A program made the translations under genes and the position numbers. DNA of 56,844 nt from a virus (Duplodnaviria > Caudoviricetes). This document shows, one piece after another, positions 16,414 through 43,025 of this stretch (position 1 is the first letter of the stretch; the number at the start of each line of letters is the position of its first letter). The DNA lies in IMG/VR virus record IMGVR_UViG_3300002307_001210, positions 1 to 56,844 of that record; one strand, written 5' to 3'. The notes beneath the pieces are model-generated. The model saw only the letters and a program-made list of their open reading frames with translations. It was not told the origin of the DNA and made no database searches.

Positions 16414-17418
16414 ATGCGTAGTAGAGAATTATACAAAAAACCAGTGTCATTGAGAGTTGCTGACACCGATCCAGCCCGTGCGATGTTTCATAAGGCCATG
16501 GGACATATACTCGGCGAGATGCTAGAAGAAGATTCTACTATCGGAGACACTGTCCGCAGCAGCCCATACTCTGATGTGCTTGTTCGTGCAGTTCATGAAA
16601 AACTAAAGATACCACACGACCAAAAATGGGTGAAAACCCAAAAAGTCAGTTGGAAAGATGTCAAGGCTATATCACCGAACTTCGTGATACTTGCCGGATC
16701 TAGGGGAACTGCTGCCATCAGATGGAACGGCCGAAATGATCAGTGGTATGTCGTCACAGCCACTGGAGCTGGCCTACATCCTTATACTAATAGTAGCATC
16801 AACGCAGTGATGCAAGATGTAAAAGAAGACATCGGCATGATCACTGGATCATACGAAGCCGATCCTGAAGGGAAACGCAGAGCCTGGCGCGGTTCATCCA
16901 ATGATGATTCAGGCGAGGTTGATGTAACAAGAGCGGCACGCAAAAAAGCACGGACGATATCCAATCCGAACATGTTAGACCCTGCTGCTGGCCAGAACCA
17001 AAACATGGCTGCAATTCAAAATAAGTTGCGTCCGCTATATGTGAAATACATTGAACAGGCAATGGCGGATGTAAAGGGTGTGATCGGTATGCAACTCAAA
17101 GCAGATGCACATGATCGTGCTTTACAAAAAATAAACATATTGAGAAGTCTAAAAGCTATGTCTGATCGCATTAAGAATAATCCCGATGACATACCATCTG
17201 ATATAATGGACAGACTGAAACCTGCATTACTTATGACAGCCGCATATTTTTATCCGGACGAGACAGGTGACATTACTAGAAACCAATACGGCAGCATAAC
17301 TCCAGAATCACATGAAGGCGCTAGGCGTGTTGTAAAAGACATAGCAAAAGGTGATGTTAAGAAATTAGCCACAATGATGAATTTCTTTAAACAATCATTG
17401 CTACATCATATGCGATAA
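16414..17418 (+). CDS. Hypothetical protein
   Basis: 334-aa ORF in the late operon. Confidence 0.55.
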   Translation: MRSRELYKKPVSLRVADTDPARAMFHKAMGHILGEMLEEDSTIGDTVRSSPYSDVLVRAVHEKLKIPHDQKWVKTQKVSWKDVKAISPNFVILAGSRGTAAIRWNGRNDQWYVVTATGAGLHPYTNSSINAVMQDVKEDIGMITGSYEADPEGKRRAWRGSSNDDSGEVDVTRAARKKARTISNPNMLDPAAGQNQNMAAIQNKLRPLYVKYIEQAMADVKGVIGMQLKADAHDRALQKINILRSLKAMSDRIKNNPDDIPSDIMDRLKPALLMTAAYFYPDETGDITRNQYGSITPESHEGARRVVKDIAKGDVKKLATMMNFFKQSLLHHMR

Positions 17419-18441
17419 ATGGATCATAAAATGAGAACACTATCAGAAGCGAACTACGGAGAAAAAATTCTCAAAGACCCTAGACTAACAAAGATGTTGG
17501 CTCTTGCGGTGAAACACGATCACACCTTCCCATTAGCACCGCTAGCAAAATTGGGCCCTAATCCAAAAGATGAGGATGTGGTTAAGCTATGGAGCCAGTT
17601 GTTAGATAAAACACTGGCCAATACTAACTACGGCGATCTATCAAGAGAAGGCAAGTTTGATGCCTGGTTGACACGACTCTATGCAACTCATGTTAATGAT
17701 TATGAAGAGATTAACGGTGAAGGCGGAGACGCACTAGGTTCTTGGAAAGCACTACAAACTCATAGACTATTGCTACCTAGAGATCAAGATTTCAATAGAT
17801 TCACTAGTGTAAAAGAGTTACAAAAAACAGTCAGAAAGCCAGTTTACCTGGAAGCATTGAGAAAGATTGCTGACCAAGAAAAAACAGAAGCGATGAAGCG
17901 TGATGCTCGGCAGATCGTGCTTATTGACGATGACAAGTATTATATAACAGTGCCACTTAACTATGGTTCATGCTACGTATTCAGTCATGGTATGGGAGTG
18001 TCAGCTAGTTATTGTACTGGAAGTAGTAGTGGACTGAGTTGGTTTACCCGCTATTCTAAAGACGGGCCGATGATAGACGTCCTTTCTAAAGATAATATGG
18101 AAGATAAGAACGGCAAATGGCAGTTTCACAGTGCTACTAAGCAATTAAAGAATGCGAACCAGGATTCTCGTAGTTGGGGCGAAGCGGTAACTGATGACTC
18201 TGAATTCGCAAAATACTTTCCTGGAGTATTGAAAAAGATTATTCATGCATTAGAAACACATGCTGAACAGTTGAAGAATTCATCTAAGGATATCTCACAA
18301 GATGGTTGGAATATTCCTGAAGAAATAGATCGTCTCAAGGCTAGATATCCGTTATCTTATAATAGCAGTGCAGGAAAAGATTCTGATAAAGAAGCATCTG
18401 AAGAAGATATTAATCACCTATTCGGCCGTGACAGAGGATAA
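17419..18441 (+). CDS. Hypothetical protein, paralog-like of the next gene
   Basis: Shares WL.R.Y, D.NRF, VP..Y/WCT and K.Q.H motifs with 18450-19817. Confidence 0.55.
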   Translation: MDHKMRTLSEANYGEKILKDPRLTKMLALAVKHDHTFPLAPLAKLGPNPKDEDVVKLWSQLLDKTLANTNYGDLSREGKFDAWLTRLYATHVNDYEEINGEGGDALGSWKALQTHRLLLPRDQDFNRFTSVKELQKTVRKPVYLEALRKIADQEKTEAMKRDARQIVLIDDDKYYITVPLNYGSCYVFSHGMGVSASYCTGSSSGLSWFTRYSKDGPMIDVLSKDNMEDKNGKWQFHSATKQLKNANQDSRSWGEAVTDDSEFAKYFPGVLKKIIHALETHAEQLKNSSKDISQDGWNIPEEIDRLKARYPLSYNSSAGKDSDKEASEEDINHLFGRDRG

Positions 18442-18449
18442 TTCTAATC

Positions 18450-19817
18450 ATGCGGGCCCGGGAATTCCTATTTGAGTATGATCGTAAGAAAACCGCTCAA
18501 ACAATCTCTGGAAGCGAGAAAGCTGAAAAAGCTGTAATCGCAGATCGCGGCGATATGGGTCCTCTTGATCAGGTGCGAAGCAGTCTGATAAGTCTTCAGA
18601 TGGGTAGACCCATAACTATTCCAGGTGCTCAACCTGCATTTACTCCGCCTTCCGATTACCGAGAAAAGGCTGGCCCCCTCATCAAAGATCCTGCAGTTAG
18701 AGAGAAATTTCTAGAAGACTTGCTGAGTGTCATTGAAACAAAAGATCCTACTCCAAATAAACAATATACACCTTGGTTAGCAAGAATGTATATCAATGGC
18801 GGTGTCAAGTTAGAAGACCTGAATCGTGGAAATATACTGGGCATCTACGATATTGGTAAAAGAAGACGTATGATCAAACCAGAAGACGCTGACGTAAATC
18901 GTTTCAAAACTTATAGTAATTTTGAAACTACAATGTGGCAGAACTATGATCTGGATGCTATGGATAATACTGAGAAAAAGGCAGAAGAACAAGGTCAAGC
19001 ATCTAAAGTATTTGAGAACAGTGATGTTCTTGTAGTTGTTCCACATGATGAAGCCGCGGCATGTAAGTATGGCAGAGGCACTCGTTGGTGTACTGCTGCG
19101 ACTAGCGGCCATAATTACTTTGATTCTTATAATAATCAAGATAAACTGTATATTATTATTCCAAAACATCCAAAATATGAAGGTGAGAAATATCAATTAC
19201 ATTTTTATTCAAAACAATTCATGGATGAAGATGACACTGGTGTTTCGCTCACCTTCGTATTTGATCGTTTTCCTGAATTAAAAGAGTTTTTCTTTGAGAA
19301 ACAACCAGAACTTAAAGATTTCATTGAGTTTACTCCGGATGATATACTCCAACCTCTCATTGACAAGATTGCTGAAATGGCTGAGGAAAAAGTATGGGAG
19401 ATCATCAGCGATTGGGAACATAATGATGACTGGTACTATAAAGAGATGCGAGAAAAATACGGTGATGAAGAAGGAGATATTGACTGGGATAGAGTTCATG
19501 AGGGCGGAGATGATTACTTAAAATGGAACGACGAAGCCCGTCGCTTTGAAATTGATATGAATGATGCTATTAGACCAAAGGCGGGGAATTTAAAAAGATG
19601 GATGAATTCCGAGTGGATAGAGGGTGAGGGAGACTGGTCCCTTGAGGGTCTTCCTGAACTTATTGCTGATAGAGTCCGTGAAGAATTTCCTAATAGGAGG
19701 GATCATACCGACTATGGCGTCGCCGCGTTCATACACAGTAAGATTTTTGTTGACAAGCATGGAGAGGATGATAATTGGCGAGTTTTTCGTGTGGCCGATA
19801 GTCACCCATTCAGATGA
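18450..19817 (+). CDS. Hypothetical protein with WCT motif
   Basis: MRAREFLFEY leader; DPTPNKQYTPWL, YGRGTRWCT and KYQLHF motifs. Confidence 0.55.
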   Translation: MRAREFLFEYDRKKTAQTISGSEKAEKAVIADRGDMGPLDQVRSSLISLQMGRPITIPGAQPAFTPPSDYREKAGPLIKDPAVREKFLEDLLSVIETKDPTPNKQYTPWLARMYINGGVKLEDLNRGNILGIYDIGKRRRMIKPEDADVNRFKTYSNFETTMWQNYDLDAMDNTEKKAEEQGQASKVFENSDVLVVVPHDEAAACKYGRGTRWCTAATSGHNYFDSYNNQDKLYIIIPKHPKYEGEKYQLHFYSKQFMDEDDTGVSLTFVFDRFPELKEFFFEKQPELKDFIEFTPDDILQPLIDKIAEMAEEKVWEIISDWEHNDDWYYKEMREKYGDEEGDIDWDRVHEGGDDYLKWNDEARRFEIDMNDAIRPKAGNLKRWMNSEWIEGEGDWSLEGLPELIADRVREEFPNRRDHTDYGVAAFIHSKIFVDKHGEDDNWRVFRVADSHPFR

Positions 19818-20528
19818 ATATAGATGAACTAATCAAAAAGTTATACTTATGAAATTATGGATTTTTGGCCAAAGTATGTGTTTACCATTTAATGTATTAG
19901 ATGCCGAAGGTTGGCCATCGCTATTAAGTAATCAACTTGGTATAGAATATAATAATACTGCACAACCAGGAGCCGATAATTTTTTCATTTATCATTGTTT
20001 TTTAGAAAATCTTAAACTAATTGAAGAAGACGACATTGTTATAATAGGGTGGAGTCATTACTCAAGAAAATCATTTGTATTTGATTGTACCAACACACAA
20101 CATAGAAATACACTAAAAAATAGCCTACATTATAAAACACAAACAAAAGATTTGTTTAGAAGTAGAAATTTAGTACCAAACAGCAAAGATAAATGGTTAA
20201 CCTTGCAACCAATGGATTCAGGAGATACATTTTACGATACATGGTTTAACCACTATTATTCTGATTACGAACAAAAATGTAATTTTCAAAGTTACTTAGA
20301 TAGTGTACAACTACGGGCACCAAAGAAATATATTCCATTTTATTTCAGCAAGGAAAGTGTAAGCAATATTAATACTTTGCCCGGTGAATATATGTTAGAA
20401 TTCACTATTAAAAACAAGGTTGAACTAAGTAACAGCGATTACCATATCAACTCATTAGGTCATTCTTTGTGGGCTAAACTATTATATAATAAAATATAAG
20501 GTCCAGCAGATGAATATAGATGAACTAA
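19811..20528 (+). repeat. 22-bp exact direct repeats bounding an AT-rich gene
   Basis: CAGATGAATATAGATGAACTAA at 19811-19832 and 20507-20528. Confidence 0.85.
19849..20499 (+). CDS. SGNH-hydrolase-like hypothetical protein
   Basis: IFGQSM (GDS-like), PGADN, and C-terminal DYHINSLGH (DxH). Confidence 0.5.
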   Translation: MKLWIFGQSMCLPFNVLDAEGWPSLLSNQLGIEYNNTAQPGADNFFIYHCFLENLKLIEEDDIVIIGWSHYSRKSFVFDCTNTQHRNTLKNSLHYKTQTKDLFRSRNLVPNSKDKWLTLQPMDSGDTFYDTWFNHYYSDYEQKCNFQSYLDSVQLRAPKKYIPFYFSKESVSNINTLPGEYMLEFTIKNKVELSNSDYHINSLGHSLWAKLLYNKI

Positions 20529-20680
20529 AAAGATTAGCAGGTATCACTGATCACCGGGGAATAAATACTGTATCGGAGCCCGGTAGTCGTGTCATGGCTC
20601 GGCCCGGTACTGAAGAATGGTTCAAGCGTCCAGTAAATGATATGCAGATGCCAACCGGGTTTAGGGGTCGTAAGCGATGA
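20510..20680 (+). CDS. Small hypothetical protein (56 aa)
   Basis: Manual translation MNIDELKRLAGITDH...PGTEEWF...GRKR, coupled to the next gene. Confidence 0.6.
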   Translation: MNIDELKRLAGITDHRGINTVSEPGSRVMARPGTEEWFKRPVNDMQMPTGFRGRKR

Positions 20681-22213
20681 GAGCGTTTGAATTTCTGACT
20701 GAAGGATCGGGCCCTCACTTTAGGCCAACTCCTGAACAACAACAAGAGATTGCTGACCTGTATGCATCCGGGTTTAGCGGGGATGATATCGCTAAGGAAT
20801 ATAAAGCGAGCAAAGGTACAATATCTAGGTTCATTAGGAATCTTCCTAATTTCAAAGAATTAAGACAACAATTTTATAAAGCCAGAGAAGAACAAGGATT
20901 ACAAACCGGCCCAAAAGGCATTACTCCTGATCAAGTTCAACAAATGGCTAATAATTTTGCACTTGGTAAAAATTTTAATCAATTGAACAAAGAGTTTGGT
21001 ATTTCCCCTGAAAACGTTCTGGGAAAATTAAAAAAGTTGCCTAATTTTGAAGAACTATTACAGCAAAACACCAAGGCTAGACAAGAGCAAGGATTGCTTA
21101 CACTAGACGATTTGGGGCGTAAAGACACAACTCCGGCGCAAATTGATCAGATGGCAAAAGAATATGCTAGTGGGAAATCTACTAGACAAATAGCTAAGAT
21201 GTTTAATCTAGCCCAGAGCGTTGCGATTATGCATTTAGCAAAAAGACCAGATTGGGAAGAACTCAAGTTTCAAAGTCTCACCAATCGTTCTAAAAAACTC
21301 GGTGGAACACAATCATTGACAAGTCGCGGTATCAATAAGCCAGGCAGTAAAGGCATTCATGCTATCAGAAGAACCGGAAGCCCTAGCGGAAGTGTGTTTG
21401 AAGATGAAATTATGAGATCATTTGAATTCATGACTGAAGTTTCTGCTGCTGATTTGGATCAGTGGAACCCAGAACGGTTTCAAACCCAACAAGAAGGTGA
21501 TCCTATCGGTATGGTATCTGATAAACAAGCGTTTAGTAGCAATCTACCAAGCTGCTTGGACATGCCAATCAAGTTACCCGGCACCTCAATAAAGAACCCA
21601 TATAAAAATAAAGGTGTGATTGAGTTCGTGCAGCGTTCACTACAACACAATCAAAAGGTCAATCCACGTTTTGATCAAAGTTATATCTATCTCACAGTTG
21701 ATCAACGCATGGTTGAAGGTAACAAAACTCATCGTAGGGGCGGCGCACACTTTGATGGTATGCAGGGTGAACGCTACAAAATCAAGCTGCCTATGGATCA
21801 AAATTACATCGTAAGCGATTACAATCCTACTCATCTGTATAGCCAACCCTTTGATGCTAGAGGATTAAGCACCAAGCATCATAATTGGTTTCATGAACTT
21901 GAAAAACAAGTAGACAAATCCCGCACTTTCGTTCCTGATCCATACGTGATCTATTTTGTATCAGGATATCATATGCACGAAAGTCCCGTCGCCCCTGAGA
22001 CAAGAATGCGAACATTCATGCGTATCAGCGTTGGATACAAGCCAGGTGGTCTACCAGGCGAAACACCTAATCCATTATTACCTACTCCCCGTTTAGATCG
22101 TGATCGTGAGATTCCTGGAAATCTAAAGAAAGATTTAAAAGTTGGAACAGCACCTGATCCAAATAAAATAATCGGGGTAAAAAGTCGTAAGCGATGAGAG
22201 CGTTTGAATTTCT
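20667..22213 (+). repeat. 30-bp exact direct repeats bounding one gene
   Basis: GTCGTAAGCGATGAGAGCGTTTGAATTTCT at 20667-20696 and 22184-22213. Confidence 0.9.
20677..22197 (+). CDS. Fusion of triple HTH-like repeat module and possible 2OG-Fe(II) oxygenase-like module
   Basis: Three repeats of Q..Q(M/I)A..(Y/F)A.G. Internal second leader MRSFEFMTE at 21412. HFD...H...R pattern in the C-terminal half. Confidence 0.45.
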   Translation: MRAFEFLTEGSGPHFRPTPEQQQEIADLYASGFSGDDIAKEYKASKGTISRFIRNLPNFKELRQQFYKAREEQGLQTGPKGITPDQVQQMANNFALGKNFNQLNKEFGISPENVLGKLKKLPNFEELLQQNTKARQEQGLLTLDDLGRKDTTPAQIDQMAKEYASGKSTRQIAKMFNLAQSVAIMHLAKRPDWEELKFQSLTNRSKKLGGTQSLTSRGINKPGSKGIHAIRRTGSPSGSVFEDEIMRSFEFMTEVSAADLDQWNPERFQTQQEGDPIGMVSDKQAFSSNLPSCLDMPIKLPGTSIKNPYKNKGVIEFVQRSLQHNQKVNPRFDQSYIYLTVDQRMVEGNKTHRRGGAHFDGMQGERYKIKLPMDQNYIVSDYNPTHLYSQPFDARGLSTKHHNWFHELEKQVDKSRTFVPDPYVIYFVSGYHMHESPVAPETRMRTFMRISVGYKPGGLPGETPNPLLPTPRLDRDREIPGNLKKDLKVGTAPDPNKIIGVKSRKR

Positions 22214-23864
22214 AACAGAAGAAGTAGGCAGGGTCATTGACCTCACAAAGAACTATCCACATTATTCCACCCTTAAAGGCAAGATACTTGACATATCTCC
22301 TAAGGGTAAGTATAAGATACAGATCATTGACGCTGATATAATTCCTGGCAAGAAAGTGTCAGTAAAGGTTGGCGACACAGTTGCTATCAATGCAAACTAT
22401 TTAAGACAAGCTAGACGCATTGATGAATCTACTACAGTCAGGCTAAAAGATTTAGCTACCGTTTCTACAGATTCCCCTGAAGCAGATTTCTGGATCATTC
22501 GCAAAGGTAGCGAGAAAACAGTAGGAACACCAGTAAAACAATATCAACCACAATATATAGGTGTAAAGGTCGTAAAAACTAACGTATTAGAACCAAACTA
22601 TCTTTATTACATGATTATGCACCTACATAATCAAGGATATTTTAAGTCTAGGGCCATCGGAATAACTAACCTAGTCAACATAAGAGTCGCGGATGTTGCT
22701 GATATTTCATTTGGATTACAAGAAGGCATTAACGAAGACTGGAAGAAAACTCTAGGTGGAATCGCTGCTGCTGGAGCATTGGCACTGCCAGGTAACATGA
22801 TGCATAAACCTGGAACTGATCAACTTCCTCCCGTAGCAGTAGAGAAGGCCGATCCTGCAGTGGTTAAGCAAGCAGCGGCATCATTGGAAACCACATACGG
22901 AAATGCTTTGAAAAGGGCTTCTAGTTCCATCAAGAACAAGGCAGAGCGAGCCCAGTTTATAGCACAATGTGCCCATGAGACACAAAATTTCTCAACCATG
23001 AAAGAATTCGGCGGAAACCTTGACTTCAGAAAATATGATATTAGATTTAATCCTAGAATGGCAAATGCACTAGGTAACGATAAACCAGGTGATGGCGCCC
23101 GTTATCACGGAAGAGGCTTCATTCAGTTGACTGGCAAAGATAATTATCAGAGAGTGGGCAGAGAGTTGGGTCTTCCGTTAGAGCAGAATCCGCAATTAGC
23201 AGAACGACCAGATGTCGCTGCAAAAGTGGCACTTTGGTATTGGCAGAATAGGGTAAAACCTAAGGTGAGTAATTTTAAGGATACAAAAGAGGTAACTGCT
23301 CCTATCAATAGTTCTTTGCATGGACTAGATGATAGACACCAGAAGTATCTTGCCTACAGTGAATTACTAGGTGGCGAACCTAGCCCTGGTCAAGGTCTCA
23401 AAGAACATGAGATGGACAATGCTGCAGGATGGGGCGCCACACCTAACAATCGTAATGTTGATTATATGGGATTGCGTGTAATGATGCAGCCTTCAATTTT
23501 TCTAAAATTAGCAGCAGAGTTGAAAGAACCAACGAGTGCGAAAGGTATCATGTCGCACCTAGAACAGGGCGGACATATCGCTTCTCCTTTTCTTATGATA
23601 AACATACCTGATGAATGGGATGACGGAGATTTCTCTACACCAGCTAGGGTCACTGGACATGAAGGCAGAAATCGCATGAAAGCACTACAAGAACTTGAAG
23701 GTACCCAGCATCAAGAAGTTCATATTTTTCCGAGAGGTCTCCGTAATAGACATATGACTCCGGAGTTCTTGAAGAATCTAAACAAGTGGCTCATTCCGGA
23801 ACGGCAGGAGCAGCCTATCTCAGGCCCCTTCTGGAGTGATGTTTTAAACACCAAGACTAAATAG
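22194..23864 (+). CDS. Mosaic protein containing a GH19 (chitinase/endolysin) domain
   Basis: FIAQCAHET and YHGRGFIQLTGKDNY GH19 motifs. Flanked by an HsdS-like segment and a ParB-like GHEGRNR segment (both weak). Confidence 0.7.
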   Translation: MRAFEFLTEEVGRVIDLTKNYPHYSTLKGKILDISPKGKYKIQIIDADIIPGKKVSVKVGDTVAINANYLRQARRIDESTTVRLKDLATVSTDSPEADFWIIRKGSEKTVGTPVKQYQPQYIGVKVVKTNVLEPNYLYYMIMHLHNQGYFKSRAIGITNLVNIRVADVADISFGLQEGINEDWKKTLGGIAAAGALALPGNMMHKPGTDQLPPVAVEKADPAVVKQAAASLETTYGNALKRASSSIKNKAERAQFIAQCAHETQNFSTMKEFGGNLDFRKYDIRFNPRMANALGNDKPGDGARYHGRGFIQLTGKDNYQRVGRELGLPLEQNPQLAERPDVAAKVALWYWQNRVKPKVSNFKDTKEVTAPINSSLHGLDDRHQKYLAYSELLGGEPSPGQGLKEHEMDNAAGWGATPNNRNVDYMGLRVMMQPSIFLKLAAELKEPTSAKGIMSHLEQGGHIASPFLMINIPDEWDDGDFSTPARVTGHEGRNRMKALQELEGTQHQEVHIFPRGLRNRHMTPEFLKNLNKWLIPERQEQPISGPFWSDVLNTKTK

Positions 23865-23890
23865 TAGCATAAAATTAGGGGAACTCGTTC

Positions 23891-26548
23891 ATGTATTTCA
23901 ACTTATTGAAGAATAAAATCGTTTGGTTGGCGATAGGTATGCTATTTTTGGCTACCCCTGCTTCTGCTCAGAGAATAACCGAGAGCCTGGCAAATGGTTG
24001 GAAATTCCAACAGAATTCTGCGATGACTGGACCAGAGCAACCCAGTTACAATGATTCATCTTGGTCTACAGTCAGCGTCCCCCATACATGGAATAGGGTC
24101 GGCTATTATCTTAACCAGACTGTTCCCCATCAGAATACTGCTGCTAACGAGAATTTATATCAAGGAAACGCTTGGTACAGAATTTCATTTTCTCCTCCCC
24201 CTATGATGAACAAGAGGGTATTCCTTCAGTTTGATGCAGCTAGCCGTGTCGCAGAAGTCTGGTTAAACGGAGTTCGTTTAGGACAACATAAAGGTGGATT
24301 CTCAAGATTTAGATTTGACGCGACTACCGCTATGAAATCAAATGCTGTAAATGTATTAGCAGTAAGAGTGAACAACGCTATGCCCGTAACAGGCAATGAG
24401 ACGGCAGACATTCTTCCGCTTAACAAAGTAGATTTCTTCGTCTACGGTGGATTGTATCGTCCGGTATCTTTAGTTGTTACTCCTACAATTCACTTTGATC
24501 TTCTTGATTTTGGTGGTAATGGCATGTATGCTTCTGCTACTAATGTAACATCTAGTTCCGCTACACTTACTGTTCTATCTAAGTTTAAAAATGATAGTAA
24601 CACTTCTCTGTCCGGCGCATCAGTAATTTATAAGTTACTTGATGCTAACGGTAATACTGTCACTTCCTGGAGCACCCCGATCAATGTTCCTATTGGTAGC
24701 AAGGTGCAAGTGTCAAGCACAGTAAACATCGCTTCACCTCATCTATGGAACGGTGTCGCTGATCCTTATCTATATCGTATTGTTGGACAGCTTTATTCAT
24801 CTCAGTACGGTGTTATTGATCAGATGGATCAATCATTTGGCTTCCGTGATATAAGAATTGATCCTAATCAAGGACTATTTCTTAATGGCAGACATATCGC
24901 ATTGCGTGGAGTGTCTAGGCACCAGGATCGCGAAACAAAGGGATGGGCCGTGTCTTCGGCTGATGAAGATCAGGACATCTCAATCATTAAAGAGATGGGT
25001 GCTAATACACTTCGCCTGGCTCACTACGAGCAAAGCGAATACATGAATAGTCTAGCTGATAAGAATGGTCTTATAATCTGGGATGAGATTCCCCTAGTTT
25101 CTACTTTCACCCTAACTGCCGGACAAACAGCAGCATCTCTTGGATTAGTAGAGAATGCCCGTCAACAACTGACTGAGATGATCATTCAGGACTACAATCA
25201 TCCAGCAGTAGCTGTCTGGAGTATCGCTAATGAGTTAGACTTGTATGGAGCTCCGCCAAATCCTATTCCGTTTCTGAATGAGTTAAATAATCTTTCTCAC
25301 TCGCTAGATGCTCTCAAGCCGACTACACTTGCTAATTGCTGTCAGGGAGGTCCTAATCTATCAGGAAACAATACTCCTAATTTATCAGGTATAACCAATG
25401 TCATTGGCGAGAATCGTTATCCAGGATGGTATTACGGTAAAGCAACTGATATGGGTTCTATGTTAGATACTTTGCATAACACTAGCGGCTCACAGCCTAT
25501 ATCACTCAGCGAGTATGGAGCAGGTGCTGCGATCTCTATTCAGACAGATAACCCATTAGGAGGTCCCTGGAGTTCTTCAGGATATACTCAACCAGAAGGG
25601 TATCAATCATATCTCCATCAAACCATTCTACCTATGCTAAACACAAGACCTTATCTCTGGGCAACTTGGGTATGGAATATGTTTGATTTTTCAACAACTA
25701 TACGTAAAGAAGGGGACTCGGTGAACATAAACACTAAAGGTCTTGTCACATATGATCGCACTACGAGGAAAGATGCTTTCTATTTCTACAAGGCTAATTG
25801 GTCGAGTACTCCTACTGTGCATATTGCTAATGGTAGGTATAATAATAGAAACTATCAAGTTACTGATATACAAGTATATTCTAATGTCCCCTCAGTAGAA
25901 CTATCTCTCAACGGAACATCTTTAGGATCAAGGTCAAGCTGTGCTAATGCTACCTGTGTATGGAATAATGTTAAGCTGGCCTCAGGGAATAACTCGCTGA
26001 GTGCTACATCAGCAAGTGCTTCTGATAATGTAAGTTGGTATCTTGATCCAATCAGAACTACTCAGATATGGATCGGCGCTGGCAACCTAATAGGCCAGAC
26101 TACATCTAAAGGTCAATACGGATCAGATAATTATTTCACAGGTGGCACTGGCTCTGGTTCATATCGTTATGGCAGCAATTTCAGCTACAATATTCCAGCA
26201 AACAATGGAACTTATAATGTTACGTTGACTTTCCTAGAACCTGATGCAAATGCTGCATCAACCCGCGTGTTTAATGTAACAGCTAATGGTCAGGTCGTAG
26301 TGAGCGATTTCAATGTGGCTACAGCAGCAGGCGGAATTAACAAACAGGTCAGCCAGACTTTTCCGGTAACTATTTCTAACGGAAATTTAAATTTGGTCTT
26401 TACATCGGTAACAGGAGATGCTATAGTATCTTATATTGAAGTCACATCTGCATCCCCTCCTATCTCAACTAACTCGTTACTGCTTGTAGGAACAGGGGCA
26501 GCGGCGCTCGCTGGTGCTGGATTACTACTAGGTCGCAATAAAAGATAA
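23891..26548 (+). CDS. Secreted GH2 glycoside hydrolase (beta-galactosidase-like) with malectin-like domain and C-terminal membrane anchor
   Basis: Signal peptide (ASA|Q), YGGLYRPV, GVSRHQD, RLAHY, WSIANE (acid/base), SEYGA (nucleophile), KGLVTYDR. Hydrophobic tail ending in basic residues. Confidence 0.85.
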   Translation: MYFNLLKNKIVWLAIGMLFLATPASAQRITESLANGWKFQQNSAMTGPEQPSYNDSSWSTVSVPHTWNRVGYYLNQTVPHQNTAANENLYQGNAWYRISFSPPPMMNKRVFLQFDAASRVAEVWLNGVRLGQHKGGFSRFRFDATTAMKSNAVNVLAVRVNNAMPVTGNETADILPLNKVDFFVYGGLYRPVSLVVTPTIHFDLLDFGGNGMYASATNVTSSSATLTVLSKFKNDSNTSLSGASVIYKLLDANGNTVTSWSTPINVPIGSKVQVSSTVNIASPHLWNGVADPYLYRIVGQLYSSQYGVIDQMDQSFGFRDIRIDPNQGLFLNGRHIALRGVSRHQDRETKGWAVSSADEDQDISIIKEMGANTLRLAHYEQSEYMNSLADKNGLIIWDEIPLVSTFTLTAGQTAASLGLVENARQQLTEMIIQDYNHPAVAVWSIANELDLYGAPPNPIPFLNELNNLSHSLDALKPTTLANCCQGGPNLSGNNTPNLSGITNVIGENRYPGWYYGKATDMGSMLDTLHNTSGSQPISLSEYGAGAAISIQTDNPLGGPWSSSGYTQPEGYQSYLHQTILPMLNTRPYLWATWVWNMFDFSTTIRKEGDSVNINTKGLVTYDRTTRKDAFYFYKANWSSTPTVHIANGRYNNRNYQVTDIQVYSNVPSVELSLNGTSLGSRSSCANATCVWNNVKLASGNNSLSATSASASDNVSWYLDPIRTTQIWIGAGNLIGQTTSKGQYGSDNYFTGGTGSGSYRYGSNFSYNIPANNGTYNVTLTFLEPDANAASTRVFNVTANGQVVVSDFNVATAAGGINKQVSQTFPVTISNGNLNLVFTSVTGDAIVSYIEVTSASPPISTNSLLLVGTGAAALAGAGLLLGRNKR

Positions 26549-27067: not shown

Positions 27068-27634
27068 ATGAATAAGTTACTTACGATTGCAGCATTCGCG
27101 TTAGTTGCACTTACTACCCCAGCAGCAGCTGGTACTTTAACCGGAGAATATCGTTCTGCCTCAAAGCCAGATGTCGCTGGAGCTAACTTTGCTGTCTCTG
27201 GTTTTAATGTAGGTCCAGTAGCGATTGGTGCAGAAGTTCAAACTGCACAGGCACCGCACCGCGGAGCAGTGTCTGCTCTATATTCTGTTAACGCTACCAA
27301 GACGCTCACTTCAATCAGCGGTTTTGTCCCTCAAGTAGGAGTTGAATTCGGTAAGAATGCTTCTACCGGTAAGAACTTCAATTTCTGGGGCGTAGATGCC
27401 GGTGTGTCACACGCTGTAGCAGGTCCAGTATCTGCATCAGTTGGTTATCGCCATCGCGAAGGATTCACTGACCGTAAGATGCAAGAAAAGCGTCTTGTTG
27501 TAGGTCTATCCTACGCAGTAACTGATGCTACTTCGGTCGGCGTCAACTACTATCGTTATAACGAAAAGTTTGTTCCTAAGAAGACCAGTGGATCTTCTGA
27601 CGTATTTGGATTGGCTGTATCACACAGCTTCTAA
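27068..27634 (+). CDS. Outer-membrane beta-barrel protein
   Basis: Signal peptide, alternating amphipathic strands, C-terminal Phe (AVSHSF, BAM signal). Confidence 0.7.
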   Translation: MNKLLTIAAFALVALTTPAAAGTLTGEYRSASKPDVAGANFAVSGFNVGPVAIGAEVQTAQAPHRGAVSALYSVNATKTLTSISGFVPQVGVEFGKNASTGKNFNFWGVDAGVSHAVAGPVSASVGYRHREGFTDRKMQEKRLVVGLSYAVTDATSVGVNYYRYNEKFVPKKTSGSSDVFGLAVSHSF

Positions 27635-28287: not shown

Positions 28288-28674
28288 ATGTTAATAGAAG
28301 ATATCACCCGTGAACGTGATTTAGACCTGGATGCTGAGGTGAAGAAATTTGCCGAGTGGGCTGGAAAGCGATTGAACATACAATCATTACCAGAGATTGA
28401 ACTGAGTCAAGATACCGAAGATGCTCAAGATAATCACCATACTGGTTCTCATGTTGAAGGCTCTGGTAACATCTGGGTCTATGCAAAAAATCGTAATCTC
28501 GTAGACATGCTAAGGACCGTATTCCATGAGTTGGTCCATGTAAGACAAGGGGAGATCGGAATGATCAAACCAGGTGATAGTTATCCAGGTAGTCCTATTG
28601 AGGCTATGGCAGACATGCTTGCTGGTAAGTACCTTAAGATATATGGAGAGCAAAACCATCATATCTTCCAATAG
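28288..28674 (+). CDS. Putative zinc metallopeptidase-like protein
   Basis: [11 protein letters not shown] (HExxH) plus a downstream E..A. Confidence 0.55.
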
Positions 28675-29260
28675 TCCACCCTCCGCACGATTTCTTTCTT
28701 CCAGCTACCATATTACTTAGGTTGCCTTGCGGTAGACTATACTTTATTCTCAGTTGATATTTGGTGCAAGTTTCGGTTTTACCATTCATATGAACAAAAG
28801 TGTGAATGGTTTGATCACTACGATATTCTCTCTGTTCATGTATACCTTTATTCCAAGGAATATGACCTGCTCTGAATACGTTTTTCATATTTGCTATATG
28901 AGTTTCTGATTTAGGCTTACCCTTAGCAGCTTTGCTTTGATTAGATTTCCACTCATCAGTCCTAATGACACCATCAAGTCCCTCACCACCATCTGTCTTG
29001 TTATGAAGTATGCCGGTTCCTAAATCCTTTCTCCCATACCATCGTATCATTCTACGTTCAATAGCAAATGCTCCGATTGAAGTTAGGTTGGTTTCTAAGA
29101 TTATTATTCTGTCACTAGGTGGAGTAGAAATCCCTTTATAATAGTTATTCTTTGGGGATTTATAACGATGTTTGTCTGTGGCCCGTGATCCAGTACCCTT
29201 ACCGATATAATAAGGGGTCCCATCTTTTCTCAGGTAGGCATACACATAATAAATAGACAT
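28634..29260 (-). CDS. GIY-YIG-like homing endonuclease
   Basis: [44 protein letters not shown]-like tail. Start at ATG 29260 after AAGGAG. Confidence 0.75.
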
Positions 29261-29261
29261 G

Positions 29262-29327
29262 CTGATTGCTCCTTTAAGCATTAGAGTAGTTGGGTGTTAG
29301 CGCACCGTGAACTACATCTTTATTTAG
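29262..29327. ncRNA. Conserved two-hairpin element, copy 2
   Basis: CTGATTGCT/AGCATTAG stem, GTAGTT-G-GGTG..CACC-GTG-AACTAC stem, then TATTTA. Confidence 0.65.
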
Positions 29328-29392: not shown

Positions 29393-29653
29393 ATGTCTAC
29401 TAGAACTTTTAACAACGAAGCCAAGACCAAACTTACACAACTGGTAAATGAGGGTATGGCTGTAATGCAAGAGATTGAAACCCTCAATGAAGGTCTCAGC
29501 GACACTGTTAAGGCTATCGCAGAAGAACTTGAAATTAAACCGAGTGTTCTAAAGAAGGCGATCCGTATTGCCCACAAGTCTCGTCTTGCTGAAACTAATC
29601 AAGAAAATGAAGACTTGAATGAAATTCTGGAGACCGTCGGTAAAACTTACTGA
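29393..29653 (+). CDS. Small helical protein, possibly DsbA-like dsDNA-binding protein
   Basis: Coiled-coil followed by KPSVLKKAIRIAHK; directly upstream of the DNA polymerase; strong RBS. Confidence 0.45.
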   Translation: MSTRTFNNEAKTKLTQLVNEGMAVMQEIETLNEGLSDTVKAIAEELEIKPSVLKKAIRIAHKSRLAETNQENEDLNEILETVGKTY

Positions 29654-32358
29654 TGTACGTTGATGCTATCCATGACAATAAGAATGACCGCATTCATGTG
29701 GTAGAGCGTACTTCTGAAGGTAAACGAGCGTATAAAGAGTATTCAACTAACTACACCTTATACTACGCTGATCCTAAAGGCAAGTATCGTTCTATTTTCG
29801 GTGATCCGTTGTCTCGTTTCTCTACCCGTAAGAGGGCAGAGTTTGAGAAGGAACGCAGGATCCACTCTAACAAGAAATTATTTGAGAGTGATGTAAATGT
29901 CCTATTCAGATGCTTGTCGGATAACTACCTAAATATTGATCCACCGAAACTTCATACTTGTTTCTTTGACATTGAAGTGGACTTTGATCCTGAACGGGGG
30001 TTTAGTCCAACTGATGATCCATTCAACGCAGTAACAGCAATCTCTTGCTATCTTGATTGGTTAGATCAACTCGTTACGCTTGTCATGCCTCCTAAGCATA
30101 TGACAGACGAAACTGCAAAAGAGTTGACAGCGGATTTTCCAAACTGTTTTCTGTTTCGCAGTGAAATTGAAATGTTTGAGACCTTCTTTGACCTAATTGA
30201 AGATGCTGACGTTTTGACTGGTTGGAACTCAGAAGGATACGACATCCCGTATACGGTTAATCGTGTCACTCGTATCATGTCAAAAGATGATACACGCAAG
30301 TTCTGTCTGTTAGGGCAACTTCCGAAAGTCCGAACATACGAACGATTCGGTAAGGAAGAAAAGACTTACGATCTTGTCGGTCGTATTCATCTGGACTACT
30401 TGCAACTCTACAAGAAATACAACTACGAATCTCGTCACAGCTATTCACTTGATTCAATTGGTGAGTATGAATTAGGCGAGCGTAAGACTCAGTATGAGGG
30501 CACACTGGATCAGTTGTATAATAAGGATTTCAAGACTTTCGTAGAATATAACAGACAAGATACGATGCTTGTCGCGAAGATTCACAACAAGTTGAAGTTC
30601 CTTGAACTCGCTAATGCACTAGCACACGAGAACAGCGTGTTGCTGCCGACTGTTATGGGCTCAGTGGCAATGATTGAGATGGCGATCTTCAACGAAGCAC
30701 ATGCTCGTGGAATGATCGTTCCTGATAAGCAACGTAAAAAGTCTTATAGCGTTGAGCAGCAAGCAGCAGGTGCTTATGTTCTTCCACCTAAGGTGGGTAT
30801 GCACGAGTATCCAGGAGCAGTCGACCTCAATTCGCTTTATCCATCAGACATTCGTGCGTTGAACATGTCTCCGGAGACTATCGTAGCACAAGTGCGACAG
30901 ACTCTAACTGATCAGTATATGCTTGAGAAAAGCTTGAAGCTTGCCAAAGAAAAGCGTAAGAAGAAGAATGGAGACGATGCAGAAGCAGTGACTGGCGCTA
31001 TTCTATGGGAAAATCTATTTGGTTCTCTGGAATACACAGCTATCATGAATCAAGAACGGGGCACCTTGCTCACTGTTGACTATGAAGATGGTCGTAGTGT
31101 AGAGATGACTGCTGCCGAAATCTGGAAGATGGTCTTTGATAGTAACAAGCCTCTGTTGCTATCTGCGAATGGTACGATCTTTACTTATGAGAAAGAAGGG
31201 GTCATCCCTGGACTTCTAACGAGATGGTACACAGAACGAAAAGCCCTTCAGAAGCTAGCTAAAGAATCATACGGTACTGACATGTATGAATATTATGACA
31301 AGCGACAACTTGTTCGTAAGATTCTGCTGAACTCAACGTATGGCGCACTTCTGAACGAACACTGCCGATTCTATGACAAGCGTGTCGGTCAATCTGTTAC
31401 TCTATCTGGTCGCCAGATCGTGAAACACATGATGAGCCAGATCAATGAGATAATCGCAGGTGAGTATAAACACGACGGTGAAGCAATCATCTACGGTGAC
31501 ACTGACTCATGCTATTTCACTGCATTTCCTATTCTAAAGGAACAGATCAACAACGGCGAAGTTGAATGGTCTAAGGATATGTGCATAGAACTCTATGACA
31601 ACATCGCAGATCAGACTAATAACAGTTTCTCTGCATTCATGGAGAAAGCATTTCACTGTCCGAGGAAGAATGGTGAGATCATCAAAGCTGGACGAGAACT
31701 TATCGGAGAACGTTCCATTTTCATCACTAAGAAGCGGTATGCTATCAATATCTTTGATAAAGAAGGCAAGCGTAAGGACATAGAAGGTAAGACAGGCGAG
31801 ATTAAAGCGATGGGTCTTGATCTCAAGAGAGCAGATACTCCTAAGTATGTTCAAGAGTTTCTAATGGAGATTCTCGTCATGGTCCTCGGAGGAAAGCAAC
31901 GAGATGAAGTCATCGTCAAGATCAAGGAGTTTAAGAACTGGTTATCCGAACAAGATAGCTGGACTAAAGGTTCTCCGAAGTCAGTCAACAATCTAACCAA
32001 TCATACGATCAAGTTTGAGAAGACCGGCTTGTGTTCTGTGGGTCATGCGAGAGCAGCGATTAATTACAATTACTTGCGTAAGATGAACGGTGACAACTAC
32101 AGTCAGAAGATAGTTGATGGGATGAAGGTTATCGTCTGTAAATTAAAAACTAATCCCTTAGGCTTCACTAGTATCGCCTATCCTACAGATGAACTTAGAC
32201 TTCCGCAATGGTTCCTTGAGCTACCTTTTGATGATAAGGACATGGAACGTATTCTCGTAGACGAGAAGATTGACAATCTCTTGTCAGTGTTGAACTGGGA
32301 TATTCGTAGTAATACTGATACAAATTCAACTTTTGATGATTTATTTTCATTTTCGTGA
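29653..32358 (+). CDS. Family B DNA polymerase (gp43-like)
   Basis: Exo motifs [17 protein letters not shown]; polymerase motifs [28 protein letters not shown]. Confidence 0.95.
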
Positions 32359-33000
32359 TTTGCAATTATCAAAATGATACCGTTTCATATTTGATATTCC
32401 ACCGCAAGTAGAACAGTGAGGACATATGATTTCTACTTGCGGTCCTTTAAGAATACCCTTAAGTTTAATGGATCTTTTAATTTTATCAGCTTCACTCATT
32501 GGTTTTCCAATTTTAGCATCTGATAACTTTTGCTTATGTTCAGATGAAAAAACTTTACCGTAATTACTTTTACTTATTTTTTCTGCCACCTCAGGATTTC
32601 TGGCAGGGTTGCCTTCACCTTGCATGAATAAACTGTGAGCATGTCGTTGACCATCACTGAAAGTTCTGTTCTTCATTTTAGTTAATGCTGATTTAGTATG
32701 TTTATATCCCGGAGATCCCCCTCCTCCATATGACCTATTCAAAAGTGTTCCTAATCCTAAGTCTTTCCTCCCATACCAATAAATTAGCCTTCTTTCAATA
32801 GCCCATGCACCTAATTCAGACAATTGATGCTCACATATTATTATATGATTTTTGTTGCTAGGTACAGGAATAGAGGGAGAATGATACACCCATGCTCTTG
32901 GGCCTATTCCTTTTCCTATATAATAAACTGTTTCATCTTCTCCGAGATAGGCATATACATAGAATCCTACGGGAGGGTTCTTTCTGTTATAAATAGTCAT
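32347..33000 (-). CDS. GIY-YIG-like homing endonuclease with NUMOD3 and C-terminal CPHC motif
   Basis: [47 protein letters not shown]. Confidence 0.75.
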
Positions 33001-38067: not shown

Positions 38068-38739
38068 ATGTCGTTTAATAAAAATAAGTGCGATGCCGAT
38101 CTAGGTCGTCGTGTTCACGAATATCTCGTGCAGATGGGAGTTGAAACTCCTACTATTGAAAATAATCTCAGCAGAACAGATAAAATTGAAATCATTGAGC
38201 GCAAGTTCAAAGATATTATGGAAACCTTAGGACTTGACCTAACCGATGATAGTTTGGAAGAAACTCCGACTCGGTGGGCCAAAATGGTAGTGAATGAAAC
38301 TATGTGGGGGCTTGACTATGATGCATTCCCCAAATGTACTACAGTTGACAACAAAATGCACTACGATGAAATGGTCATAGAGAAAAATATTACAGTTCAA
38401 TCATTGTGCGAGCATCATATTTTACCTATAGTGGGTAAAGCTACCATCGCTTATGTACCTAACAAGAAGGTACTCGGTTTGAGTAAAATGCCTAGAATAG
38501 TAGAGTATTTTAGCAGGAGACCTCAAATACAAGAACGGTTAACTGAACAGGTATATCATGCTCTTTGTTTCATACTCGATACCGACGCTGTTGCGGTAGT
38601 AATAGAAGCTGAGCATTTATGCGTGTCTTCTAGAGGTGTGGAAGACACACATGCTTCTACTATTACGAGCAAGTTAGGACCAGCTTTCAAATCTGATCCT
38701 GCATTGCGAGCCGAATTTATGAATTTGGTGTTAAAGTAA
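38068..38739 (+). CDS. folE: GTP cyclohydrolase I
   Basis: SLCEHHILP, GLSK..RIV..FSRRPQIQERLT, HLCVSSRG. Confidence 0.95.
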   Translation: MSFNKNKCDADLGRRVHEYLVQMGVETPTIENNLSRTDKIEIIERKFKDIMETLGLDLTDDSLEETPTRWAKMVVNETMWGLDYDAFPKCTTVDNKMHYDEMVIEKNITVQSLCEHHILPIVGKATIAYVPNKKVLGLSKMPRIVEYFSRRPQIQERLTEQVYHALCFILDTDAVAVVIEAEHLCVSSRGVEDTHASTITSKLGPAFKSDPALRAEFMNLVLK

Positions 38740-39556
38740 TGTAAAAGCCAACCTCCCTCCAAGTTTTTCCTCTCCACTCAGGAGGGAGGTTGGCTCTATT
38801 TATGGCTCTAGTTTTTATAGGTTTGCCAATCCCAAGATAAAATATATTCTCATACCCAATTTTATTACAGATCACATTCGTTTCAAAATCTTTTCTACTC
38901 TTAAAATTTCCGTACGGTGTATATATTATACCCGAAGCTTTTGCTCTGGAAATAGCCAATTTTCCTTCTTCGGTTAATGATGGGTTATTCGTTACAAAGT
39001 TAGAATTTTTCTTAGCCCAAATTGATTGTTGCTTTTTCTTTTTTTCAGGATCCGCATTGATAAACCAGGTGTCGTATGTAGTTCTTTCTTGTCTGTGCTT
39101 TTTGAATTTTTCTTTTTGATTTTCCGAAAGGGTCGCTCCCTGTCTGACAGGGCCGCCGTACCGTTCGTTAACTGTTGCTAGGCCCCTTTCTATACTTTCT
39201 CTGCTCCGTTTTGTACCGGTTCTAAAAAACGAAGCAGCCTCGGCCGCGTATCTTCTGCATAGAGCGTATTGTCTGGAATTAAGTATTCTATCCTGTGTTT
39301 TAGTGCATTGCAAGAATTTAGAAACAGCATTCTTCATTTTGAAGTGATCGGGCCCGGATGTGAATTTTACCAATAACAAGTGACAAATAAAATGTTCTCT
39401 AGTTGTAAGCTTGATTAGATTTTCTTTGTCGTTTGTTCCGCCTAAAGATTTAGGTATTATATGGTGAATTTCACCTTTTTTGTTACCCAAACTATTTGCT
39501 TTTCTTTTTTCAATTATGCTATTATACCATAAATAGTATTTGTTATGAGTGAACAT
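38717..39556 (-). CDS. HNH homing endonuclease
   Basis: EIHHIIPKSLGGTNDKENLIKLTTREHFICHLLL. Confidence 0.85.
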   Translation of the reverse strand: MFTHNKYYLWYNSIIEKRKANSLGNKKGEIHHIIPKSLGGTNDKENLIKLTTREHFICHLLLVKFTSGPDHFKMKNAVSKFLQCTKTQDRILNSRQYALCRRYAAEAASFFRTGTKRSRESIERGLATVNERYGGPVRQGATLSENQKEKFKKHRQERTTYDTWFINADPEKKKKQQSIWAKKNSNFVTNNPSLTEEGKLAISRAKASGIIYTPYGNFKSRKDFETNVICNKIGYENIFYLGIGKPIKTRAINRANLPPEWRGKTWREVGFYITLTPNS

Positions 39557-42956: not shown

Positions 42957-43025
42957 ATAGTCGTATATTAAATGACACACGCATTACTAAATAGTTATAG
43001 AATATTTAATAATGCGTGGGGAAAT

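Follow-up and report, generated by a model that had tools for sequence, protein, structure and literature searches.

The stretch of viral DNA analyzed here (IMG/VR record IMGVR_UViG_3300002307_001210, positions 1 to 56,844; hereafter the window, 56,844 nucleotides [nt] in length) is a piece of a ~350-kb freshwater jumbo phage related to T4. At both ends of a gene encoding a 506-residue (506-aa) protein it carries an exact 30-nt repeat, which joins the end of one open reading frame (ORF) to the start of the next and encodes the first residues of an N-terminal leader. We consider this arrangement to be probably the outcome of short-homology recombination at leader-coding gene starts, within a variable cluster of leader-tagged genes.

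Two copies of one gene-start junction

Two exact copies of the 30-mer GTCGTAAGCGATGAGAGCGTTTGAATTTCT are present in the window, both on the plus strand (Table 1); 0 of 100 shuffled sequences contained it. It is the longest exact direct repeat in a k-mer census of the 56.8 kb, and the 22-nt runner-up lies immediately upstream. Each copy spans the final codons of the upstream ORF, the ATGA in which stop and start overlap, and the opening 20 nt of the ORF that follows, which encode MRAFEFL. The upstream ORF ends in GFRGRKR at the left copy (a 56-aa ORF) and in GVKSRKR at the right copy (the 506-aa ORF). An earlier sequence-only reading of this DNA had described an exact repeat at both ends of the 506-aa gene, spanning the upstream end (RKR, stop) and the start MRAFEFL, and both copies are as it described. 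With flanks included, similarity around the copies amounts to 52 nt at 85%. Homology between the tails of the 56-aa and 506-aa ORFs outside the repeat was considered and rejected; similarity there is patchy, and the 52 nt at 85% include the exact core.

The window is metagenomic, and repeats near the k-mer length are classic points of mis-joining, at which an assembler may connect two strains through a common 30-mer. Sequencing runs were ranked by the 31-mers in common, and the Logan contigs of four runs were compared with positions 18000-25000. One X1 contig covers the entire stretch with 0 differences. Runs X1-X3 are possibly the source data, and the X1 contig, as the possible source of the window, is therefore not independent. 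Contigs from other studies and years nevertheless bridge each junction, again with 0 differences: a 446-nt contig from a different study (X4 record 6) over 20372-20817, a 176-nt contig also from a different study (X8 record 20) over 22093-22268, and an X5 contig (record 13) over 21868-22227. The fusion of the helix-turn-helix (HTH) region of the 506-aa gene to its second module, module B, is present as well in a divergent X5 contig (record 11, up to 21478). Because both junctions are bridged in independent assemblies, the repeat is not the assembly artefact that the sequence-only reading had named as a danger to its proposal, and the joining of two strains at this 30-mer is almost certainly not the explanation.

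A second contig in the probable source sample, of 20.6 kb (X1 record 2), contains a 38-nt stretch that resembles 20645-20682 with 5 differences. The matched part is the 56-aa gene tail and the junction. Beyond it the sequence is unrelated, and the contig may come from another phage that has a related junction.

Cargo varies behind a shared junction

A Dps-like gene (15972) and the gene for the DNA polymerase (29653) bound the variable gene cluster that holds the repeat. With proteins given by their length in residues and L marking a leader, the order in the window is Dps, 334, 340, 455 (L), 216, 56, 506 (L, internal L), 556 (L, lysozyme), GH2, 124 (L), and the polymerase region. The closest relative found, L020, whose 340-aa protein is 86% identical, has Dps, 330, 340, 439 (L), 56, 548 (L, lysozyme), GH2, 124 (L), and, farther along, 380 (L) and the polymerase. 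More distant loci are arranged in still other ways. L003 has Dps, 339 (L), 335, a 399-aa protein (L-HTH-internal L-lysozyme), 159 (L), 108 (L), and further genes. L010 has, after other genes, 336, 184 (L, novel cargo), 448 (L), 306 (L-lysozyme), and a leader-tagged C-domain; L169 has 440 (L) and 369, in which the leader is directly joined to the lysozyme part; and G006 has Dps, 226 (L), 183 (L), and 397 (L-lysozyme).

L020 contains the same 56-aa gene followed by a single copy of the junction (28 of 30 nt), behind which stands different cargo with another N-terminal module; the 506-aa gene is absent from L020. Aligned with L020, the window shows collinearity at 80-85% nucleotide identity except in two places, 19692-20508, which holds a 216-aa gene, and 20695-22731, which is replaced in L020 by 472 nt. 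The left break of the second stretch, at 20694, falls inside the leader, after ATGAGAGCGTTTGAATTT, and the similarity resumes at 22732. Other cargo stands behind the same leader DNA in L003 and L010. The sequence-only reading had called for a comparison of relatives and had set its idea at risk if the locus were invariant; the cargo at this junction differs in L020, L003 and L010.

Comparison with L003 gives further breakpoints. Its backbone is 65-68% identical to that of the window, and three stretches are far closer: 20673-20805 (leader and first HTH, 89%), 21284-21439 (linker and internal leader, 88%), and 22205-22396 (a module named here for its EVGRVID motif, 82%). The ends of these stretches at 20673, 21439 and 22205 are all at leaders. 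The modules have therefore moved between lineages at a later time than the divergence of the backbones, with the joints at the tags.

A whole gene gained or lost one gene away

The 22-nt runner-up repeat (CAGATGAATATAGATGAACTAA, exact, with a spacing of 696 bp) flanks the 216-aa gene. Its left copy heads a mini-ORF of 12 codons, the stop of which overlaps the start of the 216-aa gene; the mini-ORF has ATGA coupling on both of its sides. In a lake-water contig (X5 record 11), 19810 is followed directly by 20507, the two sides having 22 letters in common; this is a precise empty site. Whole-gene gain or loss between exact junction repeats is a real natural polymorphism, one gene away from the 506-aa locus. 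Because L020 and the X5 variant both lack the 216-aa gene, insertion in the lineage of the window is the simpler reading of the pattern; repeated deletion between the 22-nt copies is a less simple one.

Modules fused and split at leaders

The sequence-only reading had also noticed a degenerate third leader at 21412 joining two modules of the 506-aa protein. This holds, as the modules occur separately or otherwise joined in relatives. The internal leader, MRSFEFMTE, matches the leader copy at 22194 in 21 of 27 nt (by direct count). In the 399-aa protein of L003, a module A with one HTH leads through an internal leader (MRLHEFIYE) into an EVGRVLD module and a lysozyme part, which together are the orthologue of the separate 556-aa protein of the window. 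Relative to L003, the window has an extra 782-nt unit (leader, module B and stop) between two leader copies.

Module B is also found as a stand-alone protein. P0001 (259 aa) is 92% identical to it and begins MRAKEFIAE, P0002 is 65% identical and begins MMRAREFLSE, and four more distant homologues have no leader. In the phage isolate collection there was no DNA-level resemblance to 18000-24500, and protein matches to module B were limited to three distant ones. The divergent X5 contig, which differs by about 8%, has the same A-to-B fusion minus one HTH unit of 207 nt (69 codons; 20931-21139 in the window). Strains thus differ in how many HTH repeats the 506-aa gene contains.

The 556-aa gene is likewise split, fused or re-headed in relatives. 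Its C-terminal domain (GQGLKEHEMDNAAGWGATPNN; GLKEHEMDN) is a separate, leader-tagged 159-aa gene in L003 and L010 (MRAHEFLTEHQMDN; MRAHEFLTEHQMDNVNGWGAT), and the fused form retains L-K-E at the joint of the C-domain. These patterns of fusion and fission fit a cleavable joint. If a head protease cuts after [LIM]-x-E, then in-frame fusions would cost nothing.

Pfam contained no family for module B, the EVGRVID module, the 556-aa C-domain, or the 455-aa and 334-aa proteins. The model of module B is of moderate confidence (mean predicted local distance difference test [pLDDT] 76, predicted template modelling score [pTM] 0.76). In Foldseek its best matches, Fe(II)/2-oxoglutarate dioxygenases without exception, have a probability of about 1 and template modelling (TM) scores of only 0.3-0.43, and the alignment retains G-A-H-x-D plus a later His and Arg. 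By its predicted fold module B is putatively dioxygenase-like. The GH19 lysozyme-type domain of the 556-aa protein, placed behind a hydrophobic segment, suits a protein that may be ejected to open the cell wall.

A leader shared by unrelated proteins

Products of the cluster begin with a nine-residue leader of consensus M-R/K-x-x-E/D-F/L-L/I/M-x-E, and unrelated protein bodies follow it within the window. A six-frame motif scan of the window found just three leaders of the MRAFEF type, namely the two repeat copies and the in-frame MRSFEFMTE at 21412. Other leader-like starts are those of the 455-aa (MRAREFLFE), 124-aa (MKIRDLLSES), 511-aa (MKINDIYES), 334-aa (MRSRELYKK) and 340-aa (MDHKMRTLSEAN) proteins. 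The 340-aa (17419-18441) and 455-aa (18450-19817) proteins are distant paralogues with 22-25% identity. Homologues of the 340-aa protein in farther relatives start with a full leader, MRATHFLTE; the form in the window has decayed to MDHKMRTLSE and retains L-S-E.

Outside the window the leader is widespread. Its exact 18-mer was found at 15 IMG/VR loci, where it heads at least seven unrelated proteins, and a degenerate DNA pattern for MRAFEF-[LIMV]-x-E matched at least 123 IMG/VR stretches. The 72 distinct instances of the degenerate pattern that were analyzed are all located at ORF starts or beside them (72/72), and their cargo is of many types. The complete 364-kb record G006 has eight ORFs with the leader motif, three of them between Dps and the polymerase. 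A full-text literature search for "MRAFEF" gave no mention in the library searched. Common MRAFEF cargo in IMG/VR loci L022-L101, on contigs of 4 to 364 kb, includes proteins of ~366 aa with VGREFNHLEDLVF, ~400 aa with KYKSSINCSNPKGFSQKAHC and 74 aa with KTDPKVCRSPKRLGR, and in many of these loci ATAAATA stands directly upstream of the ATG.

We infer packaging and cleavage of these proteins from the likeness of the leader to the T4 capsid targeting sequence, of which it would be the counterpart. In the AlphaFold model of module B, leader residues 1-10 are disordered (pLDDT 35), as the tail is also predicted to be. Peptidase_S77, the family of the T4 head protease gp21, is encoded in three of five larger leader-bearing records, with E values of about 1e-26 to 1e-28 (5.6e-28 in G006).

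Origin of the identical junctions

Leader codons differ between leaders (ATGCGGGCCCGGGAATTC versus ATGAGAGCGTTTGAATTT), and the GCG form of the leader was seen in 2 of 72 cases in an unbiased IMG/VR scan. Ahead of the ATG, the repeat includes 10 nt that code for the ends of two proteins unrelated to each other. Because synonymous codons vary and the identity extends over the upstream 10 nt, it reflects shared descent and not selection on the peptide. On these grounds the right copy would derive from the left, or the reverse, within the lineage of the window. The stand-alone P0001 ends in IGDKRS and the 506-aa protein in IGVKSRKR, as if the native tail of module B had been overwritten by the junction.

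The 30-nt repeat would then be a duplicated gene-start junction (upstream gene end, ATGA and leader), behind which a recent recombination may have stacked a second leader-tagged gene. The likeliest route would be an unequal or short-homology crossover between co-infecting relatives with different genes behind the junction. With the repeat written as R, a crossover of 56-R-506 with 56-R-556 would stack both as 56-R-506-R-556. The result would look the same if a circle had entered through a single crossover or if one junction had undergone gene conversion by the other. The general recombination machinery of the phage would suffice, with no dedicated recombinase. An incoming gene would keep frame, tag and translational coupling, because the crossover would lie within the leader and junction. 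In this respect the sequence-only reading was correct that cargo is automatically tagged and coupled, as anything placed behind the junction receives the leader and the ATGA overlap. The leader would load the protein into the prohead, a gp21-type head protease might then cut after the final Glu, and a leader inside a fused protein would on cleavage separate the modules. We infer the direction and mechanism of the event, as well as the time of expression.

Several findings weigh against this reconstruction, some of them concerning recombination at the leader and others packaging. No relative found, L020 and the metagenome loci included, has a precise empty site for the 506-aa gene. A metagenome scan with an alignment of the 340-aa protein gave 25 loci, in which the variability of the locus was visible, none of them closer than 62%. 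Neither a joint skipping 1517 bp nor a circle, both of which the sequence-only reading had proposed to look for, was present among the contigs of the 4 runs; assembled contigs drop rare variants, and since all four runs are of this kind, rare deletion forms cannot be judged from them. The neighboring 22-nt repeat does not involve the MRAFEF leader. The factor common to both repeats is therefore recombination at gene-start junctions and not a dedicated leader site.

The junction is also unusually conserved, which counts among the points on the same side. It shares 35 identical nt with L020 at ~85% identity, and 20656-20703 shows no difference in the X5 contig that is ~8% divergent. The junction is somewhat more conserved than its surroundings, and selection may act on its DNA or RNA as such. 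Its identity might thus be kept by function, such as re-initiation at the ATGA or a signal in the mRNA, or by gene conversion, the junction playing no part in the movement of genes. Genes would then be swapped by random illegitimate recombination, with selection retaining breakpoints at module borders, and the only survivors would be the recombinants that keep frame and tag; ATGA overlaps do recur along the cluster. Other coupled junctions and leaders in the window nevertheless differ in nucleotides, and the 10 nt that encode two unrelated tails are difficult to reconcile with this explanation. The different end of P0001 is expected if the junction overwrote the tail of module B, and for both of the adjacent exact repeats the flanked gene is missing from the closest relative. 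We regard conservation by function as unlikely, and favor recombination at the gene-start junctions.

Packaging is the least secure step of the reconstruction and, like cleavage, would follow by analogy with T4. Phosso, the nearest isolate checked, has no such leaders in the syntenic region. Peptidase_S77 was found in 0 of the five closest fragments, a result that carries no weight, as the control genomes also gave none; the window, a 16% fragment, contains no head protease or capsid gene. The T4-type late promoter TATAAATA has no match in 15.7-29.7 kb, and the 5 matches in the window against 3.9 expected are at chance level. A motif upstream of two genes (AGACTATAGGA) was tried and rejected, its 2 matches also being at chance level.

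The leader could instead be another kind of N-terminal tag, serving recognition by the phage's own ClpA-like unfoldase/protease, localization, or assembly; the behavior of the cassettes would be unchanged. A ClpA-like ATPase (phrog_4871) is encoded in the window, and some cargo, such as ligase-like proteins of 373 aa, is untypical of virions. The absence of direct evidence of packaging and of a nearby late promoter points the same way. Set against these, the leader agrees with the T4 signal in its length, position and pattern and in ending with L/I-x-E, relatives encode a protease of the gp21 family, and the cargo includes a cell-wall hydrolase (GH19) that carries a hydrophobic segment, as is typical of ejected proteins. 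The complete G006 has just eight leader ORFs, three in this locus, comparable to the few internal protein (IP) loci of T4. A tag with some purpose other than capsid loading seems to us unlikely, and a capsid-loading signal is the interpretation we prefer.

Evidence on a dedicated exchange system

The sequence-only reading likened the locus to an integron cassette array without an integrase. Its exchange and tagging of cargo at the junction stand. The integron is an analogy only, with neither integrase nor hairpin. No catalytic domain of an integrase or recombinase was found in 52 window ORFs compared with PHROGs (16 of them also with Pfam), and the only parts resembling resolvases or transposases among the scanned ORFs were HTH DNA-binding domains. 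The two 30-nt copies fold into hairpins no better than shuffled sequences do (z 0.95 and 0.29). Promoter-like sites (43, against 40.3 in shuffles) and terminator-like sites (10, against 9.4) are not in excess. With no integrase, no fold and no excess of promoters or terminators, the locus is neither an integron nor, in the strict sense, one of the PeSL elements (intergenic promoter plus stem-loop) described in T4-type phages. The earlier interpretation is partly supported, being right in spirit and overstated as an integron analogue.

A dedicated system might still be imagined in which a specific factor, perhaps the triple-HTH protein itself, recognizes the 30-nt site, and cassettes are excised as circles that insert again at sites of this kind. 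The direct repeats bound a whole gene unit, cargo at the site differs between relatives, the 506-aa product has HTH domains of resolvase and transposase type (HTH_7, HTH_38), and the junction is more conserved than its surroundings. These HTH matches, however, cover DNA-binding parts only, the neighboring insertion uses a different repeat of 22 nt, and neither hairpins nor a deletion joint or circle were seen. The junction of 28-30 nt moreover belongs to a single lineage, that of the window and L020. Among the 15 IMG/VR loci with the leader 18-mer it occurs only in L018, which shares the contig of L020, and the exact 25-nt junction pattern had 0 matches in JGI metagenome contigs, so that either the junction is lineage-specific or the samples concerned are outside that collection. 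A specific factor acting on this site is improbable, and general recombination at gene-start junctions remains our preferred reading.

The phage and other features of the window

CheckV estimates the completeness of the window at 16%. Compared with the DNA polymerases of the jumbo phages Phosso, Atu_ph07, XaC1, GAP32, CBB and RaK2, that of the window shows 42-48% identity, and Phosso has partial synteny. G006, a complete record of 364,247 bp with terminal repeats, is a relative, with identities of 77% for ClpA, 78% for the polymerase and 63% for Dps. Besides the family-B DNA polymerase, the ClpA-like ATPase (2467-4740) and the Dps/ferritin-like protein, the window encodes FolE, QueD and QueE of the 7-deazaguanine pathway, and RtcB.

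Table 1. Coordinates of the repeats, genes and modules of the leader-tagged cluster
Feature	Position	Strand	Remarks
334-aa (MRSRELYKK) and 340-aa (MDHKMRTLSEAN) ORFs, conserved cluster members	16414..18441	+	
455-aa ORF, leader MRAREFLFE (different codons), conserved in relatives	18450..19817	+	distant paralogue of 340-aa ORF
22-nt repeat, left copy: 455-aa ORF end, ATGA, first 19 nt of 56-aa gene	19811..19832	+	heads 12-codon mini-ORF
216-aa ORF, leaderless, viral family of unknown function (DUF6071-like)	19849..20499	+	absent from L020
22-nt repeat, right copy: true start of 56-aa ORF	20507..20528	+	
56-aa ORF (MNIDELKRLAGI...GFRGRKR), 80% aa identity in L020; 3' end is first 10 nt of 30-nt repeat	20510..20680	+	
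30-nt repeat, left copy: 56-aa ORF end (RKR, stop), ATGA, first 20 nt of 506-aa ORF	20667..20696	+	bridged by X4 record 6
506-aa ORF, two leader-tagged modules fused; not in closest relative L020	20677..22197	+	
Leader 1, MRAFEFLTE	20677..20703	+	
Module A: three HTH repeats (HTH_38, HTH_7, other HTH matches) and linker ...GSKGIHAIRRTGSPSGSVFEDEI	20704..21411	+	
Internal in-frame leader MRSFEFMTE; homology to L003 ends here (21439)	21412..21438	+	
Module B: phrog_1843 domain, HxD...H motif, 2-oxoglutarate/Fe(II) dioxygenase-like predicted fold, disordered tail	21439..22197	+	
30-nt repeat, right copy: 506-aa ORF end (SRKR, stop), ATGA, first 20 nt of 556-aa ORF	22184..22213	+	bridged by X8 record 20, X5 record 13
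556-aa ORF (starts MRAFEFLTEE): EVGRVID module, hydrophobic segment, GH19 lysozyme-like domain, C-terminal domain behind LKE remnant	22194..23864	+	

Three ORFs resembling homing endonucleases, at 32347-33000 (minus strand), 38717-39556 (minus) and 42972-43781 (plus), are situated among the replication and 7-deazaguanine genes; cuts by their products could provide starting points for recombination. The window has its DNA polymerase gene in one piece (901 aa, 29653-32358). In L003 (11958-16111) this gene is split into 732 aa and 327 aa with a 320-aa ORF between, which may be an intein, an intron or a homing-endonuclease insertion. Three other genes are unusual cargo for a phage: an ORF similar to cytochrome P450 (10196-11446); an 885-aa GH2 glycosidase with a signal peptide and malectin domain (23891-26548), which L020 also has in conserved form; and a gene for a small protein that has a signal peptide and weak matches to porins (27068-27634).

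Two further exact repeats were observed. The 19-nt direct repeat GAACTACATCTTTATTTAG occurs at 397-415 and 29309-29327, 28.9 kb apart; its second copy stands in a short gap upstream of a minus-strand 215-aa ORF (28634-29281) and may be a regulatory motif or a remnant. The 17-nt repeat TCGCCCGACCGAAGTAT, with a spacing of 36 nt (56343-56395), is inside the ORF 56314-56673 and may be a short in-frame tandem duplication.

Significance

Proteins injected with phage DNA act first in infection, and those of T4 are anti-restriction weapons. Our results suggest that many uncultured freshwater and marine phages related to T4, jumbo phages included, load diverse enzymes by means of one start tag. The cargo would range over DNA-binding arrays, a dioxygenase-like module, a cell-wall hydrolase and ligase-like proteins, and the DNA of the tag appears also to be where genes are swapped, stacked, fused and split. 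A search for the tag would offer a simple listing of candidate injected effectors in metagenomes, and the tag itself a natural design rule for putting foreign proteins into phage heads.

A bolder proposal, which we put forward tentatively and consider unlikely, is that the leader DNA has been selected as a linker through which modules are exchanged within a large and undescribed pool of T4-related phages in aquatic habitats. If so, some 27 nt would serve at once as capsid address label, protease-cleavable joint and portable recombination site. Any gene recombining there would acquire the tag and the coupling, and one fused in frame would later be released by cleavage. The arrays would be evolving polyproteins of injected effectors, and the MRAFEF leader would mark a very wide family of injected proteins.

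Comparison with known systems

In integrons, an IntI tyrosine recombinase is encoded next to the array, and the attC sites are imperfect inverted repeats that fold as single-strand hairpins. The locus described here resembles integron cassettes in being an array of unrelated single-gene units in one orientation, with a recurring boundary element and expression from the resident context. It differs in having no IntI integrase and no attC hairpin, and its repeats are direct, coding and lineage-specific.

The PeSL elements offer a closer comparison. Arbiol et al. (2010) reported that genes of T4-type phages are gained, lost and replaced at repeats, and likened these to integrons without an integrase (PMC2839356). 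Excision as mini-circles followed by re-entry was proposed there, mini-circles were shown by inverse PCR, and Repoila et al. (1994) was cited for analogous elements at IP loci (PMC2839356). Common to PeSLs and to our locus are gain, loss and replacement between close relatives at short flanking repeats with no integrase. The absence of a flanked gene with one repeat copy left behind is likewise seen for the 216-aa gene, in X5 record 11 and in L020, which lacks the gene. PeSLs combine an intergenic early promoter with a stem-loop terminator, whereas the repeats of the window are overlapping, coding gene-start junctions without a hairpin. Mini-circles were demonstrated for PeSLs; the evidence from the window consists of contigs, among which no back-joint was seen.

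Giant phages such as phiKZ, 201phi2-1 and SPN3US have ejection and inner-body proteins with propeptides. In jumbo phages many head-internal proteins are cut after Glu at short motifs, with several sites in one protein, by a protease related to gp21 (PMC9026906). Processing after Glu at a short motif would be common to these phages and, as we interpret it, to ours. The motif in those phages is S/A-X-E, and they are not known to have a common start tag of nine residues. By its polymerase the phage of the window belongs to a different jumbo lineage, similar to RaK2, Atu_ph07 and Phosso.

The nearest parallel is provided by the T4 internal proteins and their capsid targeting sequence (ipII, ipIII, ipI, Alt). 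In the T4 record, ipII and ipIII both start with MKTYQEFIAE and have in common an exact 47-nt repeat, made up of 15 nt upstream and 32 nt of leader, with a spacing of 697 bp. This is the same architecture, and a precedent for the leader repeat of the window. PMC9026906 gives the T4 capsid targeting sequence as the first 10 residues of IPIII, with gp21 cutting after L/I-X-E, residues 4 and 7 mattering for targeting, and residues 8 and 10 for processing. The IP loci of T-even phages are highly diverse and polymorphic, with the leader alone conserved (PMC3012670, PMC12373910).

Our locus shares with the T4 IP loci a short N-terminal leader that ends in L/I-x-E on otherwise unrelated proteins, tandem genes with an exact repeat over the leader between neighbors, and polymorphism; the gp21-family protease is known here from three of the five larger leader-bearing records. 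The two leaders occupy the same place and are of nearly the same length, with a basic residue 2, an aromatic residue, E-F-[LI]-x-E, and a cut motif at the end; the internal leader of the window has M in place of L/I in that motif. Only E-F-[LI]-x-E and the basic second residue are common to both, and nine residues are too few for a test of homology. The leader of the window has nine residues and not 10 (MRAFEFLTE versus MKTYQEFIAE), and its repeat holds the upstream stop and ATGA overlap instead of an intergenic ribosome site. The cassettes have neither intergenic space nor promoter between them, and the leader also occurs in frame inside fusions. The cargo is large, with modules of 250-556 aa (an HTH array, a dioxygenase-like fold, a GH19 lysozyme), and the host genome is that of a ~350-kb jumbo phage, for which packaging would follow by analogy. 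The principle itself is already known from T4, and the gain is one of breadth and of the in-frame fusion variant, without a new mechanism. What is new is the leader family and its range, the coding and translationally coupled repeat, the in-frame internal leaders, and the setting in a jumbo phage.

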